From: Chlamydiota bacterium
Lineage (GTDB): Bacteria > Chlamydiota > Chlamydiia > Chlamydiales > RGXB01
Assembly (NCBI GenBank): GCA_947494155.1
Contig: CANLTW010000006.1
Coordinates: 1,998-65,997, forward strand
DNA: 64,000 nt
Direction: 5' to 3'
The notes beneath the pieces were generated by a model, which was given only the letters and a program-made list of their open reading frames with translations, was not told the DNA's origin and did no database searches. The translations under genes were made by a program, and so were the position numbers. Below are positions 14,319 to 53,757 of the stretch, one piece after another; within the stretch, counting starts at the first letter, position 1, and every line of letters begins with the position of its first letter.

Positions 14319-15016
14319 TTAGCGCCCTCTAAAAATATGTGATCCGGCGTTCCATGTCCGTACATGCCGATCGAAGGGAAAACGTGGAGCTCGATGGGGA
14401 TGTTTCTTTTTTGTTCTTTTACTTTAAAGTAGAGTAATTCCTGGTAGAGATGGAGTGTTTTTGATGTCGATACCCTCTCATCGTTATTGCCGATGGAAAA
14501 GTAAAGTGGGCAATCTTTCAAAAACGCAGCATGACAAGATAGTTTATAGAAATCGAGAAAAGGGTCTGAAAACTGTTGATTTTGCCAAAGCCAGGAGTAG
14601 TCTAAATCATGCATCGTAGAGAAGAGGGCGATAGGGGAGGGCAAACCACGTTGAATAGCTAAAAAAGCGGCAATAAAAGCTCCACGAGAGATACCCATGA
14701 ACCCTAATGGGGCTTTTGGATCCAGGTGTTGATCAATCCAAAAACTCACCTGTTGCAAAAAGGGGGCTAAAGGATCGGTGTGCGTTTCAAACATTTGTTG
14801 GGTCCATCGCTGAACTCCATCAAAAGAGGGGATCTCGTCATTGTGTAGGGGCAAATCAAATGAGATAACTCGGATATTGTACTGGTTTAAAAAAACGGCA
14901 GGATGGCACAGGGGAGGGCTTTGTAAAGCCTCCTTAGCTGTTGTGGTAAAAAAAATTACAGTGGGTTGGAGCTGTTGAGGATGAGAAGGCTCTAAAATAC
15001 GATGGTTAAGGATCAT
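14291..15016 (-). CDS. Alpha/beta-hydrolase fold protein (esterase/dienelactone-hydrolase-like)
   Basis: Nucleophile elbow GISRGA (G-x-S-x-G) and C-terminal His in YGHGTPDH. The ATG at 15016 lies 2 nt after the pcnB stop. The 3' end overlaps the lpxB start. Confidence 0.5.
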   Translation of the reverse strand: MILNHRILEPSHPQQLQPTVIFFTTTAKEALQSPPLCHPAVFLNQYNIRVISFDLPLHNDEIPSFDGVQRWTQQMFETHTDPLAPFLQQVSFWIDQHLDPKAPLGFMGISRGAFIAAFLAIQRGLPSPIALFSTMHDLDYSWLWQNQQFSDPFLDFYKLSCHAAFLKDCPLYFSIGNNDERVSTSKTLHLYQELLYFKVKEQKRNIPIELHVFPSIGMYGHGTPDHIFLEGAKWMSEHLKS

Positions 15017-15017
15017 T

Positions 15018-16187
15018 TTAGTACTTTTTAAGCGCCTTTTTCCAAGGTTCATGAATCGACTTTAAAAGAGGATTGTAAAGGCTTTCCAAGTATAAAAAAT
15101 CCACTGCCAGATGAAAATCGGAGATGCGTGGTATTTTTACCCGCACAGGTTTTTGAGGCTGAGGACGGAGGCGAAATTGGCTCGTGAGTACCATAGCAAG
15201 AGTCCCCACAATTCTTTTTGGGATCTCAAGAAAAGGGGAAAAAAATTCCTCAATGATGAAATAGGCCTCATTTTCGATACGGCCTAAATGGAAAGGGGAG
15301 CCCTCTTTTTGCAAAATCTGGATATGTCGTTCAAAAATCGGAAATACAAGAGCAGCAAGTAAAACTATCCTATCAAATTTTTGAGTCGATTTTTTGTGGA
15401 CTTTATCGGCAATTTCCAAAAGGTTGAACACGATATTTTTTTCGGCGAGCTCACAGTAGGCGGAAAGGGTAGGGATAAGGTGCTGCAAAAGGCCTGCGTC
15501 TGTGAGTTTATGGAAAAAGGGGTGGGAAAATCCCGATTCGAGCATGCGCAGTAGTTCTTCCAGTACTCGAGCAGGGGCACTTTTTAAAATTTCGGCTCGG
15601 CAGTCGAGAAGCGCTAGGTGCGCCTGAGGGCAAACGTCCAAATTAAAGCGGGCCTGAAACTTGACAAGGCGAATCATGCGCACCGGATCTTGTTTGAAGC
15701 GTACATGTGGTGTTCCGATCACGCGTAAAAATTTTTTCTTGGCATCATCAAAACCATGGACATAATCGATCACGGTCTCATTCGAGGGGTCAAAAAAGAG
15801 GCCGTTGATGGTAAAATCGCGACGTAGGGCATCCTCTTCGGGTGAGCCAAACTCGTTATCCCTGACGATAAGATCTTCGGTTTGTGGATCACCGCTGCGA
15901 AAAGTCGACACCTCGATGATTTTCTCGTCAAAACGGACATGCGCTAACCGAAAACGGCGCCCAATAATATAGCAATTTTTGAAAATTCCTCGGATCTCCT
16001 CCGGTCTTGCCGAAGTTGAGACATCGAAGTCCTTTGGGGTTACGCCCATAAGGAGGTCTCGTACCGAGCCCCCCACAAGGTAGGCGGTATGTCCTGCCTG
16101 CTGTAATTTTCTAATCACATACAGGGCATCCTTATCTACGCCCTCTATGGGGATGCTGTGATTTTCTTTTGTGTAGACCTGTTTCAC
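15018..16187 (-). CDS. pcnB: Poly(A) polymerase I / tRNA nucleotidyltransferase family
   Basis: Motifs YLVGGSVRDLL, DFDV and GRRFRLAHV are typical of PcnB-type enzymes. Confidence 0.8.
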   Translation of the reverse strand: MKQVYTKENHSIPIEGVDKDALYVIRKLQQAGHTAYLVGGSVRDLLMGVTPKDFDVSTSARPEEIRGIFKNCYIIGRRFRLAHVRFDEKIIEVSTFRSGDPQTEDLIVRDNEFGSPEEDALRRDFTINGLFFDPSNETVIDYVHGFDDAKKKFLRVIGTPHVRFKQDPVRMIRLVKFQARFNLDVCPQAHLALLDCRAEILKSAPARVLEELLRMLESGFSHPFFHKLTDAGLLQHLIPTLSAYCELAEKNIVFNLLEIADKVHKKSTQKFDRIVLLAALVFPIFERHIQILQKEGSPFHLGRIENEAYFIIEEFFSPFLEIPKRIVGTLAMVLTSQFRLRPQPQKPVRVKIPRISDFHLAVDFLYLESLYNPLLKSIHEPWKKALKKY

Positions 16188-27500: not shown

Positions 27501-30446
27501 TTACAAAAGGCCTAATAAAGGTGTGGGATTCAACCTTTTTTCAAAAAGTTGGGAGGAGGTCCAAAGCATTTGCTGCCTGTTTTCTTTAAGTGCTTTATCT
27601 GGATCATTGATATGCACATTGTCAAAAAGGGCATCGATCTTGGGTTTTAAATCCAATAACGCTACGAGTAGGGGTTCGTGAGGGAGAGTCTTGAGAAGGG
27701 AGAAGAGCTCTTTTTCCTGTAAAGTGACGAAGTGGTTTGGCTCCACTAGACGTTTATGATCTACTGCTTGCCCTTTGACTCTTCGGTAGACCTCAAGCCA
27801 ATCTTTAAAAGCTAGGGGATCTTGACGAAGCTTTTTAAGCTCTTCTGCTGTTTTAAAGATTTTCACAATGTTCAGCTCCGAGGCAGAAATTAGGGCCTCT
27901 ACCTCCTCTTTAGCATAACCTGTCTCTAAAAGAAGAGTCTTAAGCCTGCTGCGGATGAGATGAGCGGGTTCGTGCCGATTTTTTTCCCTGTGGGGAGTTT
28001 CCTTATACGATAACAGTAGGTGGTTGATCGCCTCATCAATATTGAGATCCCAACCCAGCTCTTTTAAAAGTTTTACAATCGACAAAGCCTGGCGCCGTTG
28101 GGCGTAAGGGTCTTTTGAAGAGGTAGCAAGTAAATTGACCGTTGAAAAAGCAATGATATTATCGAGCTTGTCAATAAGCGATACAATTTTTCCCGTTTCA
28201 CAAGAGGGGAGTGGGTCACTCTCCATTTGGGGTTGATAATGTTCGCAAATAGCAGAGCTTGTTGCGGGGGATACCATAAGGAGTTTGGAATAAAGGGATC
28301 CCATCAATCCTTGAAGCTCAGGAAATTCCCCCACTACATTAGAGTTGAGATCCCCTTTGCAGTACCCTATCGCCTCAATAACGTTAGAAAATTCTTTTCC
28401 TATATGCGCACGAAAGCTCTCAGCGATTTTCAACATGCGGTCTATTTTATTTTTATAGGTACCCAACTCCTTTTGAAACACCACCTTGTCCAGTTTTTCG
28501 GTCATTTTTTTTAGGCCAAGTTTTTTGTCCTCTTCAAAGAAAAAGGCTCCATCGGAGAGTCTAGCTCTAAGAACTCGACCGTTATTTTCAAGGATATGCT
28601 CTTTTGTTGGTGCGTCTAAAATCACACAAGCTTCGTTGGTGATCTTATTGTGTTTGTAGATCGGAAGGTAACGCTGATGGACAATCATCTCCAATTCGAT
28701 CAGTTGCGGAGGCAAGGTTAAGAAATTGGGGTCAAATTTTACAAATCCCACCTCAGGATACTCGCTCAAATAGATCAACTCCTCTATAAGCCGTTCGATA
28801 CCGGTGGTCCCTTGTGGCAAAGCGCCTAAAATGCGCTCTTTTCTTTTTGAGGGATCTAGAATCACGTAGTGGTCTTCAAGCTTTTGTAGGTATTCTTTGA
28901 CGTGCCCAATCGCAATTGGCTTGTGCATCCGTTGCCTATGCCCCCAGGTGATTTTTTGGCTGTGCACCTCAGCGAATTCGATGGGGATGTTTTTATCACC
29001 ATAAAGGCAAATCAGCCCCCTTACAGGACGGGCGAAGGCGATATTCGAACTGTTCCAACGCATCGACTTAGGTGTTTTCAACTTCAGCAAAATTTTAGGG
29101 ATCTCTTGCTGCAGCAGGGAAGCGATATCTTGCGCTGGCAGTGTTTTTTTATGAAAAACATAACCTGAATCAATCCAAAGGCTGGGATCCTCACCACTTT
29201 GCAGGGTCTCGATGGAGGGGATATTTTTGCCGATAGAGGCAAAGAAGGCTTGGGCCACAGGGGTAGGGGTATTAGAAGGGGTAAAAAGGGCGACGATACT
29301 AGGCCCTTTTTTTACCGTTTCAATCTCTTCTGTGGAGGTTTTCAACTCGCGGGCAATGAGAGCTAAACGTCTGTGAGTACTGTAGCTTTCTAAGCCCGCA
29401 TGGGTCGCTTTAACCGATGTAAAAAATTCTCCCATCAGCTTTTCGAGCTCTTTAGAAAGAGAAGGGACATAGTGTGCGGGGAGATCTTCGGTGAAGACCT
29501 CTAGCAGGAAATCCTCGTGAGTGGCTGTTGAGTGATGCACCACATCGCTAAAACGGTGGGAGGGAGGCGTTTGTTTTTGATACTTTAAAAGGGGGAAACC
29601 CATTTTTTTTCGGAGTTCGAGATACTCTTTTGCCGTCATTGCTGCGAGCTCTCGGACTTTGAGAATATAGGATTGTCTTTCGGTGACAGAGATAAATCCG
29701 CGCGCATCCAGCATATTGAACGCATGCGAGGCTTTGTTTACGAAATCATACGCGGGGATGGGGAGATTTTTCTCGATTAAGCGTACAACCTCTTTGGAGT
29801 AGACCTCAAAAAGATTAAACCAAAGGTCGCTGGAGGCCTCTTCCAGATTGTAGCGGCTCGCCTGCACCTCGCGTAAATGGTAAAGATCTTTGTAGGAATA
29901 GACACCTCCAAAAGGGACATCATAGATCGAAGACTTGTGGTTGATAAACATGGAAAGGCGCTCAAGGCCGTAGGCAATTTCAACAGGGATCGATTCCATC
30001 TCAATTCCAGCGACCGACTGAAAATAGGTGAATTGTGTGATCTCCATGCCGTCACACCACACCTCCCAGCCTAGTCCCCAAGCTCCTAAAGTGGGAGATT
30101 CCCAGTCGTCTTGCACGAACCTAATGTCATGATCTTTTTGGCTTAAACCAATCGCCTCTAAAGAGTCTAGATAGAGTTGGATAATCGCTTCCGGTGCGGG
30201 CTTCAATAGAACCTGGTACTGGTGGAAAAGTTGAAGACGGTTTGGGTTTTCTCCGTACCGGCCATCTTTGGGCCGTCGTGACGGATCAATGTGGGCAATC
30301 TGGCAAGGCTCCGGTCCTAAGGAACGCAAAAAGGTGTGGTGGGAGAATGTCCCTGCCCCTTTCTCGGTATCGTCGGCTGCAACAATACAGCAGCCCTGTT
30401 TGCTCCAGAATTCATTGAGTTGCATAACGATATTTTGAAAGTCCAT
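27501..30446 (-). CDS. glyQS: Glycine--tRNA ligase, fused alpha and beta subunits
   Basis: 981 aa. GlyQ-like N-terminus MDFQNIVMQLNEFWSKQGC...YQPSRRPKDGRYGENPNRLQ is followed by a GlyS-like region. The fusion is the chlamydial arrangement. Confidence 0.9.
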   Translation of the reverse strand: MDFQNIVMQLNEFWSKQGCCIVAADDTEKGAGTFSHHTFLRSLGPEPCQIAHIDPSRRPKDGRYGENPNRLQLFHQYQVLLKPAPEAIIQLYLDSLEAIGLSQKDHDIRFVQDDWESPTLGAWGLGWEVWCDGMEITQFTYFQSVAGIEMESIPVEIAYGLERLSMFINHKSSIYDVPFGGVYSYKDLYHLREVQASRYNLEEASSDLWFNLFEVYSKEVVRLIEKNLPIPAYDFVNKASHAFNMLDARGFISVTERQSYILKVRELAAMTAKEYLELRKKMGFPLLKYQKQTPPSHRFSDVVHHSTATHEDFLLEVFTEDLPAHYVPSLSKELEKLMGEFFTSVKATHAGLESYSTHRRLALIARELKTSTEEIETVKKGPSIVALFTPSNTPTPVAQAFFASIGKNIPSIETLQSGEDPSLWIDSGYVFHKKTLPAQDIASLLQQEIPKILLKLKTPKSMRWNSSNIAFARPVRGLICLYGDKNIPIEFAEVHSQKITWGHRQRMHKPIAIGHVKEYLQKLEDHYVILDPSKRKERILGALPQGTTGIERLIEELIYLSEYPEVGFVKFDPNFLTLPPQLIELEMIVHQRYLPIYKHNKITNEACVILDAPTKEHILENNGRVLRARLSDGAFFFEEDKKLGLKKMTEKLDKVVFQKELGTYKNKIDRMLKIAESFRAHIGKEFSNVIEAIGYCKGDLNSNVVGEFPELQGLMGSLYSKLLMVSPATSSAICEHYQPQMESDPLPSCETGKIVSLIDKLDNIIAFSTVNLLATSSKDPYAQRRQALSIVKLLKELGWDLNIDEAINHLLLSYKETPHREKNRHEPAHLIRSRLKTLLLETGYAKEEVEALISASELNIVKIFKTAEELKKLRQDPLAFKDWLEVYRRVKGQAVDHKRLVEPNHFVTLQEKELFSLLKTLPHEPLLVALLDLKPKIDALFDNVHINDPDKALKENRQQMLWTSSQLFEKRLNPTPLLGLL

Positions 30447-35883: not shown

Positions 35884-36675
35884 TTGACAGTGTCTTATCC
35901 ATTCCTCTCTCCTGCAAAAATCAATCTAGATTTTAAAATTTTAGGCAGAAGAGAGGATGGATATCATTTGATTCGATCCGAAATGGTTGCAATCAACCTT
36001 TTTGATGAGTTAGAGGTAGCCCTTTCTCCAACAAATTGCCTTCTTTCTCTTCAACCTCTCCCTTTCGACTTCAACACCTCAATTTTTTTTAAAGCCTATA
36101 CCCAGGTGAAGAGGAAAATTCCCGATCTTCCCTGTTTCCAAATCAAGATAAAAAAATCTATACCTATTGGAGCTGGACTTGGTGGTGGATCGTCTAATGC
36201 TGCCACTTTTATTTTCGCGATTCGGCAACTTCTTAACCTCGATTGGACCGATAATGAGATGATAGAGATCGCAAAAGGTATCGGAGCCGACGTCCCTTTT
36301 TTCTTTTCTTACGGGCGTGCACTAGCTGAGGGGATCGGTACTGAAATCACCCCTCTGCCCTTATTAGGAAAAAAAAACTTCACCCTACTATTTGATGCAA
36401 TTTCGATTGCAACTCCTTTGGTGTATCGACTTGTGGACCTTGAGCAATTAGATGAAACCGCACGAAACCAGTTGGAAAAATTTGCTGCAATTGCCTACCC
36501 AGCCTATGCACAGACCTTGAAAGAATGGAAACATCTTTTTGGGGAGGTTACTATGACCGGGTCGGGATCTGCCGCTTTTGTCGAGGGGATCATTCCTTTT
36601 AAGCTTTATGGGATAAGAGGGTTTCACTCCCACACGATCGAACGCAGGCCAAATGAGTGGTATCATCCCTGTTAA
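35884..36675 (+). CDS. ispE: 4-diphosphocytidyl-2-C-methyl-D-erythritol kinase
   Basis: TTG start. PAKINLDFKILGRREDGYHLI and GHMP-kinase motif PIGAGLGGGSSNAA. Confidence 0.9.
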   Translation: MTVSYPFLSPAKINLDFKILGRREDGYHLIRSEMVAINLFDELEVALSPTNCLLSLQPLPFDFNTSIFFKAYTQVKRKIPDLPCFQIKIKKSIPIGAGLGGGSSNAATFIFAIRQLLNLDWTDNEMIEIAKGIGADVPFFFSYGRALAEGIGTEITPLPLLGKKNFTLLFDAISIATPLVYRLVDLEQLDETARNQLEKFAAIAYPAYAQTLKEWKHLFGEVTMTGSGSAAFVEGIIPFKLYGIRGFHSHTIERRPNEWYHPC

Positions 36676-36753
36676 GCGAGGAATACTATTTGAAACCAAC
36701 TGTAAGACCTTGCTATACTCCGCCAAACTAATCGAAAAGAGTTGTGAAGTTTC

Positions 36754-37716
36754 ATGGGTTGCGAGGATTTGATTGTAGTTACTGGTGGTGCAGGTTTTAT
36801 CGCAAGGTGTGTTGTAAGAGAATTGAACCTGAAAAACATCACACGTATCGTTTTGTTCGATAAGTATGACGCATTAACTCTACAAAACCTGGAAAACCTT
36901 AGAGGGCTCTCTTTCAGCTCCTTGGAATCTAGTGAAACTCTCGAGGCATTTTTAGAGACCGAAAAGGATCAAATCAAATGTGTGATCCATTTGGGGGCGA
37001 ACTCCTCAACAACCGGTACAGATGCACGTGACTATTTGGAAAATAACTACGAGCTATCCAAACTACTAGTAGATTTTTGTTTAGAGGAAAAAATTCGGTT
37101 TATCTATGCCTCCTCAGCCTCTATCTATGGGGATTCCGCTCAAGAATTTGATGATGATCCTAAAAAATTTGCAGAAAATAGACCTCTTAATCTCTATGCT
37201 TGGTCGAAATATCTTTTCGACCAATATATCTATGAGAATGGGCTGGAAAACAGCGTTCTGGGGCTACGTCTGTTTAACGTATTTGGGCAAGATCGATCAA
37301 AAGGTGATATGCAGTGTATTGTAACAAAAGCCTTTGACAAGATTTTGCTCAAAAAGAAAATGGAGATATTTGACGTCGAATCTTCGAGAGATTTTGTCTT
37401 TGTCAAAGATGTAGCACGTTTTATTGTGGAGTCGATCCATAAGCCCAGCTATGGTATTGTCAATTTCGGAAGTGGCAAGGCAACTACTTTTAAAGAGGTT
37501 TGTGAAATGGTCTATGAGGCTATGGAGCAATCGCCCCATTTTGAAGAGATTTCTATCCCGGCACAACTCATGGGAAAATACCAGTACTACACACGCAGTA
37601 ACAACAACCGCTTGACAGAGATGTTAAAAAAACATCGATACAACTTTTCTTTTACCCCCCTACGTGATGCGATAAAAGATACTGTAGTCGAGCTCAAAGG
37701 GCTTTTATGTATTTAG
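36754..37716 (+). CDS. hldD: ADP-L-glycero-D-manno-heptose 6-epimerase
   Basis: VVTGGAGFIARCV Rossmann motif. Blocks HLGANSSTT, PLNLYAWSKYLFDQYI and GKYQYYTRSNNNRL are collinear with E. coli HldD (HEGACSSTT, PLNVYGYSKFLFDEYV, GRYQAFTQADLTNL). Confidence 0.85.
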   Translation: MGCEDLIVVTGGAGFIARCVVRELNLKNITRIVLFDKYDALTLQNLENLRGLSFSSLESSETLEAFLETEKDQIKCVIHLGANSSTTGTDARDYLENNYELSKLLVDFCLEEKIRFIYASSASIYGDSAQEFDDDPKKFAENRPLNLYAWSKYLFDQYIYENGLENSVLGLRLFNVFGQDRSKGDMQCIVTKAFDKILLKKKMEIFDVESSRDFVFVKDVARFIVESIHKPSYGIVNFGSGKATTFKEVCEMVYEAMEQSPHFEEISIPAQLMGKYQYYTRSNNNRLTEMLKKHRYNFSFTPLRDAIKDTVVELKGLLCI

Positions 37717-38693
37717 ATAAAAACCGATTAAAAAACTCCTCCATTTTAGTTTGCGGCGACCTGATCATAGACCACTATGTGGAGGGTGTGGTAGAACGAA
37801 TTTCACCAGAGGCTCCAGTTCCGGTTTTAAAAAAAAACCAATCCACCTTTAAGCTCGGAGGAGCTGCAAACGTTGCTGCAAATTGCGCTGCTTTAGGGGT
37901 CGAAACGTTTTTACTGGCAGTATCAGGAGTTTCATCGAAAGACTACTCACTGAAAGATCTTCTAGAGAGTGCAAATCTTAAAGAGGAGAATATTCTCATC
38001 GATGAGTCTATTCGACCTGTAATTAAAACCCGTTTTATGGCGGATGGGCACCATATCTTAAGAGTGGATGAAGAGGAGCTGCCGCAATTTTCCCCAGCTC
38101 TTATAGCTCAACTAGTCAGCCGATTTGAGGAGTTGGTACAAACGGTAGACGTGGTTGTTTTTTCCGATTATGCGAAGGGCTTTTTTGCACCTCAAGTCCT
38201 TTTTCACTTTCTTGATATTGCCCGTAGGCTTAAGAAAAAAGTTTTGGTAGATCCTAAGGGGATCCATTATCAAAAATATCGGGGCTGCTTTTGTATTAAG
38301 CCTAATAAGAAAGAGGCTTATAAAGCGGCTAACTGCGATATAACAACCCCAATCGAAGTGGTTTCCCGGATTCTTTTAGATATTACGGATGCGGACCATC
38401 TGTTGATCACCCGTTCCGCAGAGGGGATGACCCTTTTTTCAGCTGAAAATAGACCTAAACATGTCGATGCCTTCAAACAAGATGTTGTGGATGTGGTGGG
38501 AGCAGGAGATACAGCGCTAGCTCTTTTGGCTGTCGCAATTTCTGTCGGGTTATCTATAGAAGATGGAATGGTATTAGCGAATGTAGGGTCATCTATAGCC
38601 GTGAGTCGGCAGGGTTGTGTAAGCGTTACTTTTGACGAATTGCAAGAGCGCCTATTGGACTGCCAAAAAAAACTTCTTATTGCGAAAAATTAG
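37707..38693 (+). CDS. hldA: D-glycero-beta-D-manno-heptose-7-phosphate kinase (RfaE/HldE domain I only)
   Basis: VCGDLIIDHYVEGVVERISPEAPVPVL, GGAANVAANCAALG and VVGAGDTALA are collinear with the kinase half of E. coli HldE. At 328 aa it has no adenylyltransferase domain. Confidence 0.85.
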   Translation: MYLDKNRLKNSSILVCGDLIIDHYVEGVVERISPEAPVPVLKKNQSTFKLGGAANVAANCAALGVETFLLAVSGVSSKDYSLKDLLESANLKEENILIDESIRPVIKTRFMADGHHILRVDEEELPQFSPALIAQLVSRFEELVQTVDVVVFSDYAKGFFAPQVLFHFLDIARRLKKKVLVDPKGIHYQKYRGCFCIKPNKKEAYKAANCDITTPIEVVSRILLDITDADHLLITRSAEGMTLFSAENRPKHVDAFKQDVVDVVGAGDTALALLAVAISVGLSIEDGMVLANVGSSIAVSRQGCVSVTFDELQERLLDCQKKLLIAKN

Positions 38694-38793
38694 ATAAAAA
38701 ATCTTTTTCCAAAAGCTTTGCACAAATTTGAAATACAAACTTGTTAAATAAATTTTGTCTGTTTATGACTCGGTTTTTAAAACAAGTTAGATA

Positions 38794-41700
38794 ATGGCGC
38801 ATTATCCCCAAGATAAAAGAGAACAAACCAAAAGTACAGATAACAAGAAAAATCTGTCTCTGCCATCTATTGGGGTGTATTCTAACCTCAATCAATCCAG
38901 CCCCACTAAACACCAAAAACAATGGAAAAAGACACCGGTTAAATATGATAACTTGGCTGAAACCTACGACCAAGATACCAGTAAATATGGATGTGCCTCT
39001 TTAGACCACATCATTAGATCCTTGATCGAACATGCACCCCCTAAATGCTATGAGCGGATTCTTGATGTAGGGGTTGGCACAGGTCAAACTTCGAAGATTT
39101 TCCTGGATATTGGTGCTCAGGTTGTGGGTCTTGATATTTCAAAAAATATGCTCAAACTTGACTCTGAAAGATCCCCTTTATTTCATCATCTTATCGACCA
39201 TGCTATTGATGATCCTCTTTCTACAGCAGGGATTGATCCTGAAAGTTTTGACACAATAGTGGCAAGTGGTGTGCTTCACTTTGCAAAGGATTTACCATTT
39301 ACTTTAAAAGAGTTGGCAGTAGCCCTTGTCCCCGGGGGTGTGCTTTCATTTACGTTTATTCCCAACCAAAAACGCAAAGTTAGTGACCTTACCCATTTAC
39401 ATGAACCTTCGATTGTTCTAAAGATTTTACAAAACCAAGAGATGATCATACTGGATAGTAAACAATTTTTTGCTTACCCGGATGAAGGGAATTCTGGGGA
39501 TCCTCTAGAGTATGTATTAGTTACGGCACAAAAGAAAGGGCAAAGACGAGAAATTCCGGAGGGACTTAAAGTTCTGACTCGTTCAGCCTGTGTAGATCGT
39601 CAGCGTATTTTTAGCTTGATACAAACGCCTCTTGCATGTGGTCCAATGATGACTCGATGGTGCGGTTTTGATGACGTACAGCTGAGACAAGAAGTTGACC
39701 AAATGACAAAGCTTTTTTTTGAAAAGTTTAGGGCCAATCATACTATCTTGCTTTCCGACATTCTTTTGCCCACTCATACGGCGAAAGTAGCAGGGTTAGG
39801 TCAACCAGGTTGTGATGTACTAGCAATTTTTGCTCACCCTGATGACGAAGCTATTATAGGGGGTACCCTTAGTTCTCTCAGTATCGCCAAAAGAAGTATC
39901 CAACTTTTAGTGGCCACAGATGGAGGTGGTGGTAAAAATTTAACTAACGCAGAAAATCTTGCAAGTGTCCGTTTAAAAGAGTTGGAGGAATCGGTCAAAA
40001 TACTAGGGATTGAGGGATGTACCGTCCTTGGTTTTCCTGACCTAGGAAAATTTAACGATAAAAACCATTCTCTTCCGGTAACAGCACTAGATACCTTGAA
40101 ATTATGGGGTATAGAAACCCTGCTGGAGTCGCTTGTTTACCAGATTCGAAAGTATAAGCCACGGTTGATTCTTGGATTTGAATCATCACGAGATTTTTTC
40201 TATTCCCTTCATGGTCACCACCTAGCTTTAGGTTTAGCTTCAGCAATTGCGTTCCACCTTGCTGCAGATCCGCTGGCATTTCCTGAGCAAAATTTAGCCC
40301 CTTGGGCTGTAGATGCTATGTATGGGGTCGTCCCTTTCGACACTCTTTCAGAGCGCCTTACAATTGTTAAAGGGGATCTGGCCAAAAAAAAAGCCGCTAT
40401 TTTAGCACACCGTAGCCAGTTCTCTAGTGTAGGGCTTAGTCTTAAGCTGGATTTACCAGAATTTTGGCACCTGGTTCAAGCGCGCAAAGGTGGGGGATTG
40501 CTTGAAGAATTATTGAAACCCTCAAATGTGGAACGTACTGCCAAGCTGAAGCACACAATTCCAAAAGTTGCAAGCGCCATATTACATCCAAACGATCCCG
40601 TAGGAATTCTCTTCGGACAAAGAAGCATCTCTAAAGTGATTAGTGATATTCAAAGTCGTCCTTATCCACGTAAAGAAATAGTCTCTATCCTTAAAGCTCA
40701 GCAAATGGCGCGCGGATGTAAAGACGGTAAAGTATACAACAACATCTATAAAATTTTAGATCCTAAAACAACTTTGATTGTCACTGGGCAACAGGTAGGG
40801 ATTCTTGGAGGCCCCTTATATACCCTCTACAAGGCGTTAGAGGTTGTTGTTCAGGCTAAAAAACTGGAACAACTGGGCATGTCTATAGCCCCTTTATTCT
40901 GGCTTGCAAGTTATGATGCCGATCTAAAAGAGGTCATGCAGGCTAACATCGTCGGTAGCACAAAAAAATTTAAAGTTCATTCTTCCGAGGTTAACACGAA
41001 TAAACATCCGGTGGGTGGTCTAAAAATAGGATCAAGAATTGTTGAACTCCTTGATGAATTGGATCAATCAGTAGCCAAAACCCCTAAAAAAGATTCTTTG
41101 ATGGCTGACCTTCGTTCAATCTATAACGAGGAGAGTACATTTACTGAAGCTTTTGTGAGGTTAATGGGGAGACTTACCGATCAGCATGGTCTAATTTTCC
41201 TTGATCCGAGCCATAGAGATTTTGCGGCTCTTACACGCCAAATTATCGAGAAAGAACTTTTCGGCACCTACTCTTCGCAGACGGCAATCGATGCTTCAAA
41301 CACACAGCTTCAGGCACTTGGTCATAAAGTGCTCATTAAGAAAAATGTCCATCGCCTAAATGTTTTTTTTATTGATGACAACGGCATGCGCGTTTTATTA
41401 AGACGTGCCCAAAATGGGTGTTTTGAGACTGGTGGGTCCCCCAATAAACTCAAGGAGGAGGATATAAGACGCATACTCAAAGAGGAGCCTGAGAGATTTG
41501 TTCCAAGTGCCCTTCTTCGACCTATTGTGGAGGACTTTGTATTGCCAACTGCAGCCTATGTGGCAGGCGCATCCGAACTCAGCTATTTTGCCCAAATTGG
41601 CGGAGTTTACGACTGGGCCGCAGTAACCAAACCTTCGCTAGTATTACGCCCCTCTTTAAGTTTGATCTCAAGTTTTGAAGATAAAAGATTTTTTGAGCTT

Positions 41701-42342
41701 ATCGGAAAGCACGTTGAACAGCTGCTTAATGAGGGGCAATTAGCGGAGGAAATCGGTTGGGCGGGCCTTCCCCAATCTTTGGTGAAAGCCTATAAAAATC
41801 TAAGATGTCAGGTCCTTAATACCTCGACATGCTTAAAAAAAATTCGAAAATTCATCCTGCAAAAAAACAGGAAAAAAGCCTGGGATCTTGTTAAAAACCA
41901 AAGCTTAATTATAGCATGCTGTCTGGAGGAAATAGGGCATCAGGCAGAGATTGAGAATTGTAAAGAGTGCCAAAATGAGATAAAAATCCAGCTGCCAAGA
42001 TTGCAAATATGCTATCGAAAGTTTCTTAAAGAGATTGTTAAATCCAAGAGGGTTTCGGGACATATCCCCTCATGCAATTCACTTGGGAAAGGGGCTAATA
42101 TCCTTAAGCGGATGATTGATAAAGCTCTAAAATTAGGCCGAAAGCGTGCTTTCAAAGTATGGGAAGTAATCGACCGTCTTCAACCAGGTGGGATCTTGCA
42201 AGAGAGGGTAATGACTGTCGGTCAGCTTTTCATCGAAATGGGGCCAAGGGTTACGGACACTTTGTTGCAATTAATTGAATTACGACGTTCCGATCACGTA
42301 CTTGTGGTATTAAAAGATGAAATTAGCAGGCAAAAAGGGTGA
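38794..42342 (+). CDS. Tri-domain fusion: class I SAM methyltransferase + PIG-L/LmbE deacetylase (BshB-like) + bacillithiol cysteine-adding enzyme BshC-like
   Basis: Uninterrupted 1182-aa ORF. MTase motif I RILDVGVGTGQTS plus VVGLDIS (aa ~50-245). PIG-L motif VLAIFAHPDDEAIIGG (aa ~338-565). BshC signatures IVTGQQVGILGGPLYTLYKALEVV...APLFWLASYDADLKEV and ERFVPSALLRPIVEDFVLPTAAYVAGASELSYFAQ (aa ~590-1182) are collinear with B. subtilis BshC (YllA). Confidence 0.85.
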   Translation: MAHYPQDKREQTKSTDNKKNLSLPSIGVYSNLNQSSPTKHQKQWKKTPVKYDNLAETYDQDTSKYGCASLDHIIRSLIEHAPPKCYERILDVGVGTGQTSKIFLDIGAQVVGLDISKNMLKLDSERSPLFHHLIDHAIDDPLSTAGIDPESFDTIVASGVLHFAKDLPFTLKELAVALVPGGVLSFTFIPNQKRKVSDLTHLHEPSIVLKILQNQEMIILDSKQFFAYPDEGNSGDPLEYVLVTAQKKGQRREIPEGLKVLTRSACVDRQRIFSLIQTPLACGPMMTRWCGFDDVQLRQEVDQMTKLFFEKFRANHTILLSDILLPTHTAKVAGLGQPGCDVLAIFAHPDDEAIIGGTLSSLSIAKRSIQLLVATDGGGGKNLTNAENLASVRLKELEESVKILGIEGCTVLGFPDLGKFNDKNHSLPVTALDTLKLWGIETLLESLVYQIRKYKPRLILGFESSRDFFYSLHGHHLALGLASAIAFHLAADPLAFPEQNLAPWAVDAMYGVVPFDTLSERLTIVKGDLAKKKAAILAHRSQFSSVGLSLKLDLPEFWHLVQARKGGGLLEELLKPSNVERTAKLKHTIPKVASAILHPNDPVGILFGQRSISKVISDIQSRPYPRKEIVSILKAQQMARGCKDGKVYNNIYKILDPKTTLIVTGQQVGILGGPLYTLYKALEVVVQAKKLEQLGMSIAPLFWLASYDADLKEVMQANIVGSTKKFKVHSSEVNTNKHPVGGLKIGSRIVELLDELDQSVAKTPKKDSLMADLRSIYNEESTFTEAFVRLMGRLTDQHGLIFLDPSHRDFAALTRQIIEKELFGTYSSQTAIDASNTQLQALGHKVLIKKNVHRLNVFFIDDNGMRVLLRRAQNGCFETGGSPNKLKEEDIRRILKEEPERFVPSALLRPIVEDFVLPTAAYVAGASELSYFAQIGGVYDWAAVTKPSLVLRPSLSLISSFEDKRFFELIGKHVEQLLNEGQLAEEIGWAGLPQSLVKAYKNLRCQVLNTSTCLKKIRKFILQKNRKKAWDLVKNQSLIIACCLEEIGHQAEIENCKECQNEIKIQLPRLQICYRKFLKEIVKSKRVSGHIPSCNSLGKGANILKRMIDKALKLGRKRAFKVWEVIDRLQPGGILQERVMTVGQLFIEMGPRVTDTLLQLIELRRSDHVLVVLKDEISRQKG

Positions 42343-43735
42343 TAGATTGACTGATAAACCTTTCAATGCTGTGAAAAAAAACGGGATTCCTGGCCAAACA
42401 GCCGAAGATTTTTCTTCAATTTTATTTTCCCAATTCTCAAACTCGAGCAGCCCTTTTTTTCTGCAACCCTCTCTAAGCCTTTCAGCCGACATAGGAGAGA
42501 ATCATAAAATAAGAATATCTTCGTACAGCGCATTGAATATTCCAAAAAAACAACAAGAAATCAGAATTTCGCGCCCATTAAATATTGCCTCAATATGTTT
42601 AGGCAGCATGGGAGGAAGTGCTTTAGTTGCCAAAGTCGTAGCAGAAGGCTTAGCAATAGCCGGTCACAAAGTTTCGCTACTCACATCACAAAATTCTTTT
42701 TTCAGTAGGAATTTAGAAAAGATTCCGACCATAAACGTCAGATCGCCTCTTTTTCCTATCAAGCCCGAGGATGATTGGGTAGAGCCTCTCAAAACAGATA
42801 TAGTGGAGTATTTACGCCTCCACAAGACAGATGTGGTTCATGTGCATTACATTGCGGGTCTTTTAGAAGCTGCGATTAGCGCTCGAGATGTTCTTAGGAG
42901 CGAGGGCCAAAAGGTATCTGTTATAGGGACTATGCATGGCACGGATGTTTCCTTATGGGGTCAAAATAATCAAACATTTAAACGTATCAAAGATTCGCTA
43001 CTAAAGAGTGACGGGGTTTCGGCTGTATCTCATGTGCTTGCAAATCATGCACACAAAATTTTTGATCTGTCTCACCCCCCTAAAGTCATCTCAAATGCAA
43101 TCGAATCAACCACTTGGAACCCTTTAAGCTCGTCTAATCTTCGAGAAAATTTAGGTTTGAATGGGGAAATCCTAATCGCTCATTCCTCTAATTTGCGGGA
43201 GGTAAAAAGACCTCTAGATCTTATTTTGACTTTTTTTAAGATACGTCAACAAGGGTTTGATGCAAAGCTTATGATTATCGGAACAGGTCCGATGCTTGGG
43301 GAAATGAAACAAAAGGCATCTGAACTACACCTAGTGGATCAGATTCTTTTTCTCGGTGCAATCAGTCATGATAAACTACCCGAATTAATATCCATAGCCG
43401 ATTTATACCTAATTACGAGCAAAAGCGAAGGCTTCTGCCTTGGAGCTTTAGAAGCCATGGCTTGCGGTGTACCGGTAGTGGGAACACGATGCGGTGGGCT
43501 TGAGGAAATCCTGGCCGATGTTGATCGAAATTCGAAAGGTCAATCAAATCTACTTAGTGAGGTAGGCGATACTCTTGGTCTAGCTCAAACCTCAGTATCC
43601 CTATTAAAAGATCCGCAGCGATACAGACGCGTCCAACAGGAATGCTTAAAAATCGCACACTGTAGCTTTAGTCGCCAAACTCAAATACAAGAATACATAA
43701 ACCTAATTGAAGGGGTTTGTATTGGAGGTGATTGA
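42317..43735 (+). CDS. bshA: GT4 glycosyltransferase, BshA-like (N-acetyl-alpha-D-glucosaminyl L-malate synthase); start uncertain
   Basis: [52 protein letters not shown] and [29 protein letters not shown] are collinear with B. subtilis BshA ([49 protein letters not shown]). The ATG at 42317 overlaps the upstream gene by 26 nt and adds a ~90-aa non-homologous leader. The alternative is a TTG at 42533. Confidence 0.75.
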   Translation: [472 protein letters not shown]

Positions 43736-43777
43736 GCGTGCAGGAAAATGCATCTAAGAGCTTTTTAATCTGGTTTT

Positions 43778-43822
43778 GAAAGGGGGTTAGTGGGGCTATA
43801 TCCCGCCATTTAACCCCTTTTT
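43778..43822 (+). terminator. Candidate terminator after the bsh cassette
   Basis: GAAAGGGGGTTA ... TTAACCCCTTTTT inverted repeat (one bulge, ~20-nt loop) ending in a T-run, 43 nt after the bshA stop. Confidence 0.4.
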
Positions 43823-43856
43823 ACCCTATAAAGATCCCCTAGGCACCTTAAATCAA

Positions 43857-44774
43857 TTAGGGGATTTGAGCGATTTGTAGAGCTCTAACCCTTTTTTCTA
43901 TTGGGGGATGGGTGCTGAAAAGCTCCATAAAGCCCTTTTTACCGTTACACATAAGAGCAGCTACGGATTGCGGTGTCTCCTCTTTTTCGATACTCGCGGA
44001 GGTCTGTTCGAGGCGTCTAAGAGCACGGATCATCTGTTCTTTGCTACTTAAAATAGCGCCTCCCAGATCTGCTTTATACTCCCGATGCCTGCTGAAGGTG
44101 CAAAGAATGATCGATCCAACCGCCATAAAAATAATGTCCAGTACAATTCTTGAGATCAGATAAACGCCAAAATTCTGGTCTTGTCGTCCCTTACGCGTAT
44201 GCATAGAGATCAGCTGGGAGAGGATGTAGGATAAAAAGATGACAAAAGTATTCACAACCCCTTGTAAAAGGGTCATAGTGACCATGTCACCATTTTTTAT
44301 GTGTGCAATCTCGTGCCCAATTACAGCTTCGAGTTCCTCTTCATTGAGTTTTTGCAAAAGTCCTGTTGAGACCGCTACTAGAGAATTTTTTGTTGTAGGC
44401 CCGGTGGCAAATGCGTTGGGAGTTACTGAGGAAAAAATACCGATTTCAGGTGTTTTGCTGAGTCCTGCTTTAAGGGATAATTGAGAGACAATTTTTTTGA
44501 GCAGTAAACCCTCATTTGAGCAGTCGTAAGGGGTGATGATTTTAATCTTCATCGCCCATTTTGCGATAGTTTTAGACAAAGCAAGGGAGATAAAGGCTCC
44601 AGTCATTCCATAGACAAAAAAAACAAAGAAAAGGGCTAGAGGTTGTATTTGATGATGCTGCAAATATTTGTTGAGCCCCGTCAGCGAGAGAATAAAAGAG
44701 GCTGTAAAACAAATAATTAAATTTAATGCGATAAAAAGGAAAAAGCGTCGGAAAGCTTGCATAATTACCCCCAC
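43857..44774 (-). CDS. htpX: Zinc metalloprotease HtpX (M48 family)
   Basis: HEIAHIKNGD (HExxH) between TM segments. C-terminal STHPPIEKRV motif. 305 aa. Confidence 0.85.
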   Translation of the reverse strand: MGVIMQAFRRFFLFIALNLIICFTASFILSLTGLNKYLQHHQIQPLALFFVFFVYGMTGAFISLALSKTIAKWAMKIKIITPYDCSNEGLLLKKIVSQLSLKAGLSKTPEIGIFSSVTPNAFATGPTTKNSLVAVSTGLLQKLNEEELEAVIGHEIAHIKNGDMVTMTLLQGVVNTFVIFLSYILSQLISMHTRKGRQDQNFGVYLISRIVLDIIFMAVGSIILCTFSRHREYKADLGGAILSSKEQMIRALRRLEQTSASIEKEETPQSVAALMCNGKKGFMELFSTHPPIEKRVRALQIAQIP

Positions 44775-46752: not shown

Positions 46753-47388
46753 TTGAATGCGCTTATGAGAAGGGCCTGGAACCGATTAAGACAGTTTGCT
46801 TTTTACCCTGAAGAGGAGCGCATTTACGTCTGGATCCTTATGGGCCCCTTTTTTTTAACGCTTCTCGTTTTGCCACACCTGTCTAAATTTGCCCCTTTAC
46901 AACTTGCTCTAGCTTTAGGGTCTATCTCTTTATCCTGGATGGTCGCGATATTTTTTGGGTTGGAAACACTCCAAATTACCCAGAAAATGCGCTCTTATGA
47001 GGGGCAGATTGGAGCTTTCGAGGCTGTAAAAGCAAAGCTGGAAGAGAGTCATCAGCATGAGCTTGAGAATGTAAAAAGTTCCCTAAGTGGATTGTATGTC
47101 GAGCTTGATGAGAGCTCGAAAAAACTTCTTATGGAAAAAAATCAGATCGAAAATTTGGAGCTTGCATTAGAGAAAGAAAAATTTTTAGCAGACTCTATGC
47201 AGCAGGCGACTGTGAACCTCGAACAAGAGCTGTTGGAAATTAGGGAAAAATTTAGGGTGGTAAACAGCGAGTTGAAGGTCTACAAATCCTCCTCCTACAG
47301 CCGATACGAGGTAAAACACATGGTAGATGAATTAAATCGCTACCGTGTAAGAGAAAAACAAGCGCTTCTCCTATCTTCGCAACAATAG
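46753..47388 (+). CDS. Inc-like protein: N-terminal bilobed hydrophobic domain plus C-terminal coiled coil
   Basis: Two adjacent TM segments IYVWILMGPFFLTLLVLPHL and LQLALALGSISLSWMVAIFFGL are separated by SKFAP. A heptad-rich Glu/Lys/Leu region follows. TTG at 46753 or ATG at 46765. Confidence 0.55.
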   Translation: MNALMRRAWNRLRQFAFYPEEERIYVWILMGPFFLTLLVLPHLSKFAPLQLALALGSISLSWMVAIFFGLETLQITQKMRSYEGQIGAFEAVKAKLEESHQHELENVKSSLSGLYVELDESSKKLLMEKNQIENLELALEKEKFLADSMQQATVNLEQELLEIREKFRVVNSELKVYKSSSYSRYEVKHMVDELNRYRVREKQALLLSSQQ

Positions 47389-51668: not shown

Positions 51669-52925
51669 ATGGAAAAAAAACGGTTTAAAATAGCGGCTTT
51701 GGGTTGCAGGACTAACCAGTACGAGGCGCAGGCTTTCAGAGACCAACTGCTCTCTTTAGGTTATGAGGAGGCTCGAGAGGGTGAGCTAGCTGAGATCTGC
51801 ATTGTCAATACCTGTACGGTGACTAAGTCTGCCGATGATCGCAGCAAATACCAGATTCGCTCGTTAAACCGGGATAATCCAGATGCTAAAATATTTGTTA
51901 CCGGTTGTATGACCGAAAAGCAGGCCCCAGCCCTTTTGGGTATTGCAGGGGTGGCCGGAGTCGTAAAAAATAAAGAAAAAGAAAATCTTTTAAAATTCGC
52001 GTTCCCCGATCAGGAGATCCCCGAGTTTAAAATCGAGCGGTTCGAGGCACATACAAGAGCTTTTGTAAAAGTACAGGACGGTTGCAACTCCTTTTGCTCC
52101 TACTGCATCATCCCTTATGTGCGGGGTCGTTCCCGCTCCAGGCGTTTGGAAACGATCCTGGACGAGGTAAGAGGGGTAGTAAAAAATGGATTTCACGAGA
52201 TTGTACTAACTGGAATTAATATCGGCGATTTCGATGGTGCGCCAAATGAAGGGGAGGAGCCTGTACGCCTTAGCACCTTGACTCAAGCTGTAAGCGCAAT
52301 CGAGGGGGTGCGCCGTTTGAGGATCTCTTCTATAGATCCAGATGAAGTGGATGATGCACTGATTGAGGTGATAAAAAACTCCCCCAACTGCGTCCCATCG
52401 ATGCATATTGTTTTACAGTCGGGATCGAACACCGTTCTAAAAAGGATGCGACGTAAGTATACTGTGCAGCAATTTTTCGATACCGTTGATCGATTGAAAA
52501 AGGCGATCCCCGCTTTTACATTTACCACTGATATCATCGTCGGGTTTCCAGGAGAAACCGAGGAGGAGTTTGCAGAAACTCTGGAAGTGATGAACAAAGT
52601 CGGGTTTTTAAAGGTGCACATGTTCCCCTATTCAAAGCGGGAGGGCACATTGGCGGCGCGCATGCCCAATCACCTGGATCCTTTGGTGCTGCAACGAAGA
52701 AAGGAGGTTTTGCTTGAAGTGGCCGATACATTGGCCGGTCAACAGAGACAGCCTTACGTGGGTAAGATTGTTGAGGTGCTTGTTGAATCTCATAATTTTG
52801 GCCATACAGAAAATTTCCTCCCGGTGCAAATTGAGGGAGCCCTTTTAGAAAAAAATCAATTTGTCAAAGTTCTAGTAGTTGAAAATCAAAAAGAGGCTCT
52901 CATCGGTGTCGTGGTTCCAAATTAA
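51669..52925 (+). CDS. mtaB: Radical-SAM methylthiotransferase, MtaB-like (MiaB family)
   Basis: N-terminal UPF0004 domain FKIAALGCRTNQYEAQ. Radical-SAM CNSFCSYCIIP (CxxxCxxC). C-terminal TRAM-like region. The ATG at 51669 is preferred over the track start at 51582. Confidence 0.75.
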   Translation: MEKKRFKIAALGCRTNQYEAQAFRDQLLSLGYEEAREGELAEICIVNTCTVTKSADDRSKYQIRSLNRDNPDAKIFVTGCMTEKQAPALLGIAGVAGVVKNKEKENLLKFAFPDQEIPEFKIERFEAHTRAFVKVQDGCNSFCSYCIIPYVRGRSRSRRLETILDEVRGVVKNGFHEIVLTGINIGDFDGAPNEGEEPVRLSTLTQAVSAIEGVRRLRISSIDPDEVDDALIEVIKNSPNCVPSMHIVLQSGSNTVLKRMRRKYTVQQFFDTVDRLKKAIPAFTFTTDIIVGFPGETEEEFAETLEVMNKVGFLKVHMFPYSKREGTLAARMPNHLDPLVLQRRKEVLLEVADTLAGQQRQPYVGKIVEVLVESHNFGHTENFLPVQIEGALLEKNQFVKVLVVENQKEALIGVVVPN

Positions 52926-53737
52926 AAAGTTGCAGTACCCCTTTTCTCGTCGGTCCTGTTTGAAGGCTGTAGTCCCCAACACCGATAAAATTTTTTCTAT
53001 TTCCCATCTTTCGATCGAGTCTGAGGATTTTGTCTACCCTTTTGAGGCCCCTCTTGATCGTGCCTCTATGAGTACACAGCTTGAGCTAGAGCGCGGCCAG
53101 ATTCGGATTAATCACAGGGTAGAGGGGAAGCAAAGGCACTATGTGATTTCCAACCAAGGGATTTTCGATGGATTTGGCTCGAAGTGCTCTTTTGGAACCC
53201 CCCCTTTGGTCCAAACCCCGCGAGAGATCCTCGATCTTGGTTCGCACAAAAAAATCGATATTGAGGCCTATGGTAGAAATATTCCTCTTGAGCAACTTCT
53301 CCCCACCTGGTTTTCTTTAGGTCAGTTGCAAGGGGATGGTGAAAAGCTTAAGTTTGCGCTGTTAAAAGAGTACTATTTTGACCATTTTGAAGACCTTTTC
53401 TCCTTCAAAAATGCCAGGGCTTTACAGACAGGATACCAATCGATTCGCAGCTATTTTTTTGCACAAGAGGGGCGAGAGCTGAAATTTCTTCCCTCCCTTC
53501 CAAAGGGGCTGGACTCGGGAAAAATGCGCCTTTTTGCAAATCATTTGACCATTACCCTGGAATGGTCTAAAAGAGAGGTTAAGAGGATCGTGATGCAAGC
53601 CCATCAAGAGGGTGAATGGAAATTGGACTTTGGAAAAAAGTTCCTATCGATGCAAAGACGCAAAGATCATAAACTGCAAAGTACCCAAAAGGTCTCTTGT
53701 GATACGATCTCCTTGAAAAAAGGGGAGTACGCATTTC

Positions 53738-53757
<20 letters not shown>
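52879..53757 (+). CDS. Hypothetical protein (up to 292 aa), overlaps mtaB 3' end and glgB 5' end
   Basis: ORF only, no motif recognised. The start is uncertain (an internal ATG gives MSTQLELERG...). It overlaps the glgB TTG start by 20 nt. Confidence 0.45.

Follow-up and report, generated by a model that had tools for sequence, protein, structure and literature searches.

Can two adjacent genes of a chlamydia encode a whole pathway for a bacillithiol-type thiol, and which product would they make? Among bacterial thiols, bacillithiol and its N-methyl form are currently regarded as the most widespread. In the 64-kb window examined here (the whole stretch of DNA analysed, from a metagenome-assembled genome (MAG) of a Chlamydiota bacterium), a cassette at positions 38794-43735 consists of two adjacent genes on the forward strand. 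The first encodes a fusion of a methyltransferase, an LmbE-type deacetylase and BshC, and the second encodes a BshA-like glycosyltransferase. By family assignment, all activities of the bacillithiol pathway are encoded in these two genes. With a probability of roughly 65%, the cassette can be read as a self-contained pathway for a bacillithiol-type thiol, with the methyltransferase most likely giving N-methyl-bacillithiol. A preliminary description of the same DNA had recognized a single uninterrupted open reading frame (ORF) with three modules. This is confirmed, and all motifs that it quoted are present in the translations.

Architecture of the two-gene cassette

Table 1. Features of the cassette and of the gap upstream of it, in window positions (aa, amino acids; nt, nucleotides; SAM, S-adenosylmethionine)
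Feature	Position	Strand	Basis or remark
Fusion gene, 1182 aa	38794..42342	+	Methyltransferase, LmbE deacetylase and BshC in a single chain; ORF listing and profile searches
BshA-like gene, 472 aa	42317..43735	+	ORF listing
N-terminal ~38 aa of the fusion	38794..38907	+	Predicted disordered; without counterpart in most homologues
Class I SAM-dependent methyltransferase domain, aa ~39-250	38908..39543	+	Pfam, invariant residues, secondary structure of the model, fold matches
Conserved connector, aa ~251-339	39544..39810	+	Invariant or near-invariant residues in 22 proteins
PIG-L/LmbE zinc deacetylase domain, aa ~340-578	39811..40527	+	PF02585, profile matches in the PDB, Foldseek
BshC module, aa ~583-1182	40540..42342	+	TIGR03998, PF10079, 4wbd match
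AT-rich intergenic gap, 100 nt, between the hldE-kinase gene and the fusion gene	38694..38793	+	Candidate promoter region

As seen in Table 1, the BshC module closes the fusion protein. It is composed of a Rossmann-like domain (residues 610-952) and a helical, coiled-coil C-terminus (960-1175), and about 5 residues link it to the deacetylase. The equivalog model TIGR03998 recognized it at 297.2 bits (cut-off 265.8), and PF10079 (Rossmann-like_BshC) matched residues 610-952 at 250.9 bits (cut-off 27); the match to CC_BshC at residues 1105-1171 is weak (21.6 bits, under the cut-off of 27). Residues 616-968 are collinear with residues 45-395 of Bacillus subtilis BshC (4wbd; phmmer E 3e-33), and Foldseek recovered the same structure with E 9e-26 and a template modelling (TM) score of 0.77 on the target. 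The C-terminal region described earlier as BshC-like was thus found to exceed the family cut-off. The module would be expected to add cysteine to GlcN-malate.

The deacetylase domain was matched by PF02585 at residues 343-482 (63 bits, gathering threshold 28.2). Its metal-binding and catalytic motifs, AHPDDE at 347-352 and H473-G-H-H476, are present, and 22 proteins show no variation at residues H348, D350, D351, H473 and H476, which aligned with the zinc-site motifs of MshB and Dac. When the domain profile was compared to the PDB, Dac (4e-18) and MshB (4e-17) ranked ahead of BshB1 6p2t (2e-10) and BC1534 2ixd (2e-8). The fold matches 2ixd (TM 0.66), 4xm0 and 1q7t in Foldseek. The domain is thus an LmbE enzyme of the generic kind, its zinc site intact, and not a BshB equivalog, MshB being nearer than BshB. 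The covalent joining of a BshB-like and a BshC module, as first described, is borne out, with an LmbE domain in the role of BshB.

An AlphaFold2 model of the fusion, built from 22 homologues, has a mean predicted local distance difference test (pLDDT) value of 84.8 and a predicted TM score (pTM) of 0.73. Disorder was predicted only at residues 1-38, where pLDDT is 28-39, and the consensus of alignment A1 begins at about residue 45. In Foldseek, parts of the model match solved BshC, generic methyltransferases and LmbE deacetylases, B. cereus BC1534 and MshB among the latter.

The second protein is a BshA-like member of glycosyltransferase family 4 (GT4) with a GT-B core at residues 89-465 (nt 42581-43711). 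BshA (TIGR03999) is its top family at 272.4 bits, marginally under the curated cut-off of 273.7 but more than 180 bits above the next-best family (89 bits), and the MshA model gave 53 bits against a cut-off of 462. Only five PDB sequences match it below 1e-10, and all are BshA (3mbo, 2jjm, 6d9t, 6n1x and 5d00). The previous assignment is supported by these results at the level of a BshA-like protein. Its orthologues at three other loci, L088 (75% identity), L084 and L081, reach 279 bits (above the cut-off), 272.9 bits and 244 bits on the same model.

The start of this gene is uncertain, and ATG 42317, TTG 42347 and GTG 42371 are candidates. The TTG lies 4 nt past the fusion stop, has the Shine-Dalgarno-like AGGGTGA upstream and yields the 462-aa form of other annotators, while the GTG agrees with the N-terminus of the L088 orthologue. 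The 26-nt overlap between the two genes, reported earlier, is real if ATG 42317 is the start, and either of the other starts abolishes it. An N-terminal extension of 70-88 aa (42317-42580) precedes the GT-B core. Members of the chlamydial group conserve this segment, the bshA genes of L081 and L084 also encode it and canonical BshA lacks it; it could be a docking segment or the leftover of a four-domain fusion.

The methyltransferase domain

The methyltransferase, which was left uninterpreted in the preliminary description, is the most distinctive part of the cassette. Five Pfam families, Methyltransf_11, 12, 25, 31 and 23, were matched above their cut-offs at residues 85-190 (Methyltransf_11 at 90-185). 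AlphaFold2 models give the domain a core of seven strands, capped at the N-terminus by three helices. Motif I, LDVGVGTGQ (residues 90-98), D114 and D153 are intact and are invariant in 19 sequences, namely the window protein and 18 relatives. A class I SAM-dependent methyltransferase is recognized by a motif I of the form (D/E)xGxGxG, an acidic side chain following b2 and a Rossmann-like core of seven strands, and the Foldseek matches of the domain were likewise generic class I methyltransferases. In the connector that follows, P255, R263, C266, V267, D268, R269 and R271 are invariant or near-invariant in 22 proteins. Its motif (D)R(T/S)xCVDRxR (residues 262-271, 39577-39606) is invariant in 22/22 homologues, including those in which the methyltransferase is dead.

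When 1.84 billion representatives were scanned exhaustively with HMMER, 16 clusters of this methyltransferase emerged at E<=1e-30 and 59 at E<=1e-10. Among the 16, ten are of multi-domain length (987-1434 aa) and include the window protein and the four-domain protein P0022; two have 622 and 645 aa (the source of one of them calls it LmbE/methyltransferase), one has 523 aa, and three are stand-alone. These counts point to a tiny subfamily that is almost always fused to a bacillithiol-type pathway. Homologues of about 1000 aa retain the domain with its glycine-rich SAM loop decayed, which fits the expectation for an optional tailoring step. In P0023, P0025, P0026, P0028, P0029 and P0030, the proteins of this length in alignment A1, only LmbE and BshC are found by Pfam, and the methyltransferase is a pseudo-enzyme in which motif I is lost and a portion of the domain beyond motif IV is deleted.

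One candidate for the domain, suggested by Hiras 2018, was an NmbA orthologue, and this was rejected by the PDB sequence and fold searches and by the small size of the subfamily. CtNmbA (PDB 9RI2) was present in the sequence library searched, since a P0059 query matches 9ri2 at 9e-6. In the fold searches, 9RI2 was absent from the top 50 Foldseek matches of either methyltransferase model. Compared to the 59 clusters of the present subfamily at E<=1e-10, NmbA is reported in 1765 species, and the published NmbA surveys applied a criterion of at least 30-35% identity to CtNmbA. The NmbA cap consists of four beta strands, with b'1-b'2 N-terminal and b'3-b'4 after b5 (PMC12719100), whereas the window methyltransferase is capped in its AlphaFold2 models by three helices at the N-terminus, and the loop that follows b5 is just 16 residues long. 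As judged from these searches, the methyltransferase lies outside the NmbA family and appears to have nothing in common with it beyond the fold.

The nearest stand-alone relative of the methyltransferase, P0048 (42% identity), is encoded in an Archangiaceae MAG, 14 nt downstream of an MshC gene whose product is a true equivalog (583 bits, cut-off 485). MshC is the cysteine-adding enzyme of mycothiol synthesis and is unrelated to BshC. The products of BshC and MshC have in common a cysteinyl-glucosamine with a free amine. Because of this shared part, the cysteine amine is the most economical guess for the methyl acceptor, and it is tentatively proposed here as such. In the Archangiaceae contig (L082:6587-10152, JADJNS010000008.1), MshC and P0048 are followed by a 477-aa ORF without family match. 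A myxobacterium with MshC and a methyltransferase of the P0048 type may produce a methylated mycothiol-like thiol.

Recurrence and variants of the fusion

Since the source is a MAG, and since a split arrangement exists in one relative, the long ORF might be taken for an assembly or annotation artefact uniting separate genes. This is extremely improbable. Different samples yielded at least 4 contigs with the identical 1182-aa product, so the chimera considered in the preliminary description is contradicted. The sources of its cluster mates (1182-1186 aa) are NCBI, ENA, JGI and Logan, and some of these mates carry the names of Chlamydiia or Chlamydiae MAGs. The architecture of the window fusion is retained in relatives at 79% and 75% identity, and homologues of 1159-1186 aa occur in related MAGs with their neighbours unchanged. 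Moreover, the architecture recurs in the finished genome of cultured Scytonema hofmannii, and the domain junctions are confidently folded by AlphaFold2. The fusion locus is neither a chimera nor a mis-binned island, because the product recurs across contigs, synteny is kept and the window is housekeeping DNA.

In the databases, the fusion appears as a recurring family and not as a one-off. The same domain order is seen in Scytonema and Tolypothrix (Nostocales), at 34-36% identity over ~94% of the length, and in high-GC contigs (L081, 70% GC). These cyanobacteria belong to a different phylum, and the annotation of their proteins stops at BshC and passes over the extra domains; one of these proteins, found by cluster look-up, is WP_017746942.1 of cultured S. 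hofmannii PCC 7110, which RefSeq names just 'BshC'. The fusion is directly followed by bshA at L081, at the Scytonema locus L001 and at L088.

Both longer and divided forms exist. In P0020-P0022 (1360-1442 aa), BshA is added at the C-terminus and the entire pathway lies in one chain; in a four-domain protein, the BshA part scored 199 bits and the BshC part 235, under the cut-off of 266. Outside the window's own group, the closest BshC is P0208 (49% identity, 73-75% GC), which has a 651-aa gene to itself. The start of this gene lies 3 nt behind a 639-aa methyltransferase-LmbE gene, and bshA comes next. The split site (L085 homologue) corresponds to residues 578-583 of the window protein, where its short linker lies. 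At L089:6001-11534 (JGI 3300037044), a 1442-aa methyltransferase-LmbE-BshC-BshA chain overlaps an MFS transporter gene by 4 nt, with a squalene-hopene cyclase just upstream. The window has such a cyclase at 7796-9679, with both Pfam domains (E ~1e-109 and 1e-82).

Without exception in this group, BshC is either part of one chain with the methyltransferase-LmbE unit or the product of the gene right behind it. A neighbour-joining tree separated all fusion-associated BshC domains from the canonical stand-alone BshC sampled, and placed the chlamydial sequences next to high-GC (Myxococcota-like) ones. The tree and the gene orders are consistent with a rare BshC clade of its own, whose ancestral state would be a fusion of methyltransferase, deacetylase and BshC, sometimes with BshA too. 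The distribution of its predicted members is scattered, with Chlamydiia MAGs, Nostocales cyanobacteria and high-GC (Myxococcota-like) bacteria represented.

Apparent 'BshB-BshC fusions' in Aminicenantes and KSB1 were rejected, as the ORF listing gave separate adjacent genes. In Aminicenantes (L002:5857-12090), an 832-aa protein starting with PIG-L is followed by a separate bshC, a 245-aa ORF and bshA. In KSB1 (L007:5815-8243), bshC overlaps a separate bshB. Both arrangements were read as operons and not as fusions. Operons of the type bshC-bshA or bshC-bshB-bshA are frequent in other phyla, so that a compact bsh operon is nothing unusual. In a BshC profile search of genome contigs, the matches listed were mostly from Acidobacteria.

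Genomic setting and origin

At L088, the relative with 75% identity, the gene order is that of the window, namely rpsF-rpsR-rplI-ispE-hldD-hldE, fusion, bshA and convergent htpX. The window consists of housekeeping DNA with fused glyQS, mutS, uvrC, uvrD, ligA, lpxB and lptFG. The fused alpha and beta parts of glycyl-tRNA synthetase form a 981-aa ORF on the reverse strand (27501-30446). Fused glyQS is typical of Chlamydiae and consistent with the taxonomic assignment. The host is a chlamydia, on the basis of the named cluster mates and of this housekeeping DNA.

According to the preliminary description, the region looked AT-rich by eye and horizontal acquisition was possible. Composition gives no support for an AT-rich island or a recent transfer beyond a mild dip in third-position GC (GC3), and this candidate was rejected. 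The GC of the cassette is 0.419, compared to 0.430 for the window, and windowed GC is flat. GC3 is 0.363 in the fusion and 0.340 in bshA against 0.439 +/- 0.043 in 46 window ORFs, about 2 standard deviations low. Because the closest outside relatives have 70-75% GC, a recent import would appear GC-rich and not AT-rich. The GC3 dip covers 36000-44000 and is wider than the cassette, spanning ispE, hldD, hldE, the fusion and bshA (0.34-0.41 against a mean of 0.44).

A different kind of evidence suggests horizontal acquisition of the cassette, namely the patchy distribution of the fusion over Chlamydiia MAGs, Nostocales and high-GC bacteria and the different, unfused system in cultured chlamydiae. 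Any transfer would be old, because synteny is conserved at 75% identity and the composition is host-like. In this chlamydial lineage, the cassette would appear to be an old, stably inherited insertion among housekeeping genes.

The promoter scan gave 0 sites in the gap upstream of the fusion gene (38694..38793), and promoter-like sites of the region were no commoner than in shuffled sequence. Scans for terminators and riboswitches gave nothing above background. Elsewhere in the window, the ORFs at 2499-3887, 14291-15052, 22168-22728, 46753-47388 and 52879-53757 have no Pfam match at E<=1e-6, and the ORF at 3988-4575 has a very low GC3 (0.29) and is possibly not a real gene.

Proposed pathway and alternative explanations

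From family membership and context, the first three steps can be predicted. BshA would join UDP-GlcNAc to L-malate to give GlcNAc-malate; the LmbE domain, as a zinc hydrolase, would strip the acetyl group from it; and the BshC domain, placed immediately downstream in the same chain, would add cysteine. As a fourth step we infer that the N-terminal SAM-dependent methyltransferase tailors the product, the likeliest site being the free cysteine amine, which would yield N-methyl-bacillithiol. This compound does exist as a metabolite (PMC6282198, PMC12719100). Arguments for the action of the enzymes as one assembly are the recurrence of the fusion, the existence of a four-domain form and the conservation of the N-terminal extension in BshA. 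A covalent link between deacetylase and BshC is not obligatory, because a natural split form exists. Of the physical coupling drawn from the fusion in the preliminary description, functional coupling stands, and was already known; channelling is unproven, and a close relative has BshC split off. It is conceivable, although doubtful, that BshC needs the deacetylase as a physical partner and that the fusion is nature's record of this need.

Several observations weigh against a complete pathway to N-methyl-bacillithiol. The score of the BshA-like protein is 1.3 bits short of the TIGR03999 cut-off of 273.7. The BshB1 and BshB2 models (TIGR04001 and TIGR04000) gave the deacetylase 38.0 and 39.3 bits against cut-offs of 182.5 and 195.25, and the NCBIfam model that fits it best is that of the conjugate amidase Mca, at 53 bits. 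No bacilliredoxin, Bdr or bacillithiol transferase gene was seen within the 64-kb window. The methylation target is pure inference and the methyltransferase is not NmbA-like, 9ri2 not being among the 60 best sequence matches listed for the domain (down to E 0.29). The MshC link rests on a single locus, because the neighbourhoods of four other stand-alone relatives (P0067, P0072, P0075 and P0077) lack thiol genes. Additionally, the BshC tree is a neighbour-joining tree without support values, and the organism is known only as a MAG, its thiol being predicted from genes alone.

Some of these points would fit the production of plain bacillithiol, with the methyltransferase acting on another molecule or another atom (the thiol sulfur, the malate carboxylate or the glucosamine nitrogen) or serving mainly as a structural or oligomerisation module. 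This is unlikely, although it agrees with the lack of relationship to NmbA and with the unrelated neighbours of the four stand-alone relatives; a structural role is also suggested by homologues that keep the domain despite a decayed SAM loop, and in the split form the methyltransferase stays joined to the deacetylase and not to BshC. However, its SAM-binding residues show no variation across the window protein and 18 relatives, and methylation of the sulfur would destroy the thiol. A malate target is opposed by the adjacency of P0048 and MshC, as the mycothiol precursor shares only Cys-GlcN.

It is decidedly improbable that the divergent BshA, LmbE and BshC clade has drifted in specificity and makes a related cysteinyl-glycoside thiol with an aglycone other than L-malate. 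The BshA scores of the clade do straddle the cut-off (244-279 bits), those of both relevant parts of the four-domain protein are low, the deacetylase is nearer to MshB and Dac than to BshB, and the clade is separate from the canonical BshC sampled. Yet BshA is the top model by a very wide margin, the sole close solved relatives are malate-using BshA enzymes, and the window BshC is above its equivalog cut-off. Very little probability is likewise given to an LmbE domain that is chiefly a thiol-conjugate amidase (Bca/Mca-like detoxification) instead of a biosynthetic deacetylase. The Mca match, and the fact that Bacillus BshB2 has both activities (PMC5790435), would favor it; all family scores of the domain are so far under their cut-offs that they give no discrimination, the domain is placed between other pathway enzymes, and the cassette has no second deacetylase, so that the pathway would otherwise be incomplete. 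The biosynthetic route with a final methylation is preferred.

Comparison with known thiol systems

The earlier statement that such a thiol pathway had not been described for Chlamydiae does not hold. A complete N-methyl-bacillithiol pathway was predicted in Waddlia chondrophila (Hiras 2018, PMC6282198), and the Chlamydiota of Hammerstad 2025 (PMC12719100) are Criblamydia sequanensis, Estrella lausannensis and Waddlia chondrophila, each with four different RefSeq accessions for NmbA, BshA, BshB and BshC. These gene sets were taken from the accession lists of the papers. The phylum is common to both systems; theirs consists of four separate proteins, whereas that of the window is fused. The words 'fusion' and 'fused' are absent from both papers, and literature searches for a described BshB-BshC fusion found none. 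The criteria of Hiras et al. demanded similar query and subject lengths (PMC6282198), and Scytonema is absent from the species table of 2025 (PMC12719100). The fused layout appears to be undescribed, a new variant of a known pathway.

Compared to the BshA/BshB/BshC system of Bacillus and Staphylococcus (Gaballa 2010; PMC5790435), the cassette has the same three chemistries and the same BshA and BshC families. It differs in that deacetylase and BshC share one chain with an extra methyltransferase, the deacetylase is no BshB1/BshB2 equivalog, BshA has its 70-88-aa N-terminal extension and BshC falls in a separate clade. The dispersed loci attributed to Bacillus by the preliminary description are partly true; bshA and bshB1 are co-transcribed (PMC5790435). 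The NmbA pathway of Chlorobiota and Bacteroidota (CT1040; PDB 9RI2) likewise combines the bacillithiol pathway with one SAM-dependent class I methyltransferase, and the two methyltransferases differ in their caps, helical in the window protein and beta-stranded in NmbA.

Consecutive steps of a thiol pathway are also found in one polypeptide in GshF (GshAB) of Listeria and Streptococcus (PMC7278568). Its folds and chemistry are unrelated, and the likeness is an analogy only. With mycothiol synthesis, the cassette shares an LmbE domain as near to MshB as to anything solved, and MshC is operonic with the nearest stand-alone relative of the methyltransferase. In contrast, the cysteine adder of the window is BshC and not the CysRS-like MshC, and the glycosyltransferase is BshA-like instead of MshA.

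Biological meaning

We know of no established mechanism for the last step of bacillithiol synthesis, that of BshC. The BshC of Bacillus has not been reconstituted in vitro (PMC5790435). The methyltransferase-deacetylase-BshC protein, with its four-domain and split versions, is a ready-made reagent for such reconstitution, and the fusion is Rosetta-stone evidence for enzymes working as a unit. If the fused enzyme proved active in vitro, the missing activated-cysteine chemistry would be revealed. The methylated thiol may arise via an enzyme unrelated to NmbA, which, if true, would be a second, convergently evolved thiol methyltransferase.

Gene-by-gene surveys overlook the fused form, as the lack of Scytonema in the 2025 census illustrates. 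The cassette is valuable as a way into BshC biochemistry and as evidence of a second methyltransferase for thiols, and not as the first chlamydial thiol pathway. As predicted from sequence, a second and differently organised thiol system would exist in chlamydiae beside that of Waddlia, Criblamydia and Estrella, and environmental chlamydiae would make their own redox buffer and not depend on the host for it.

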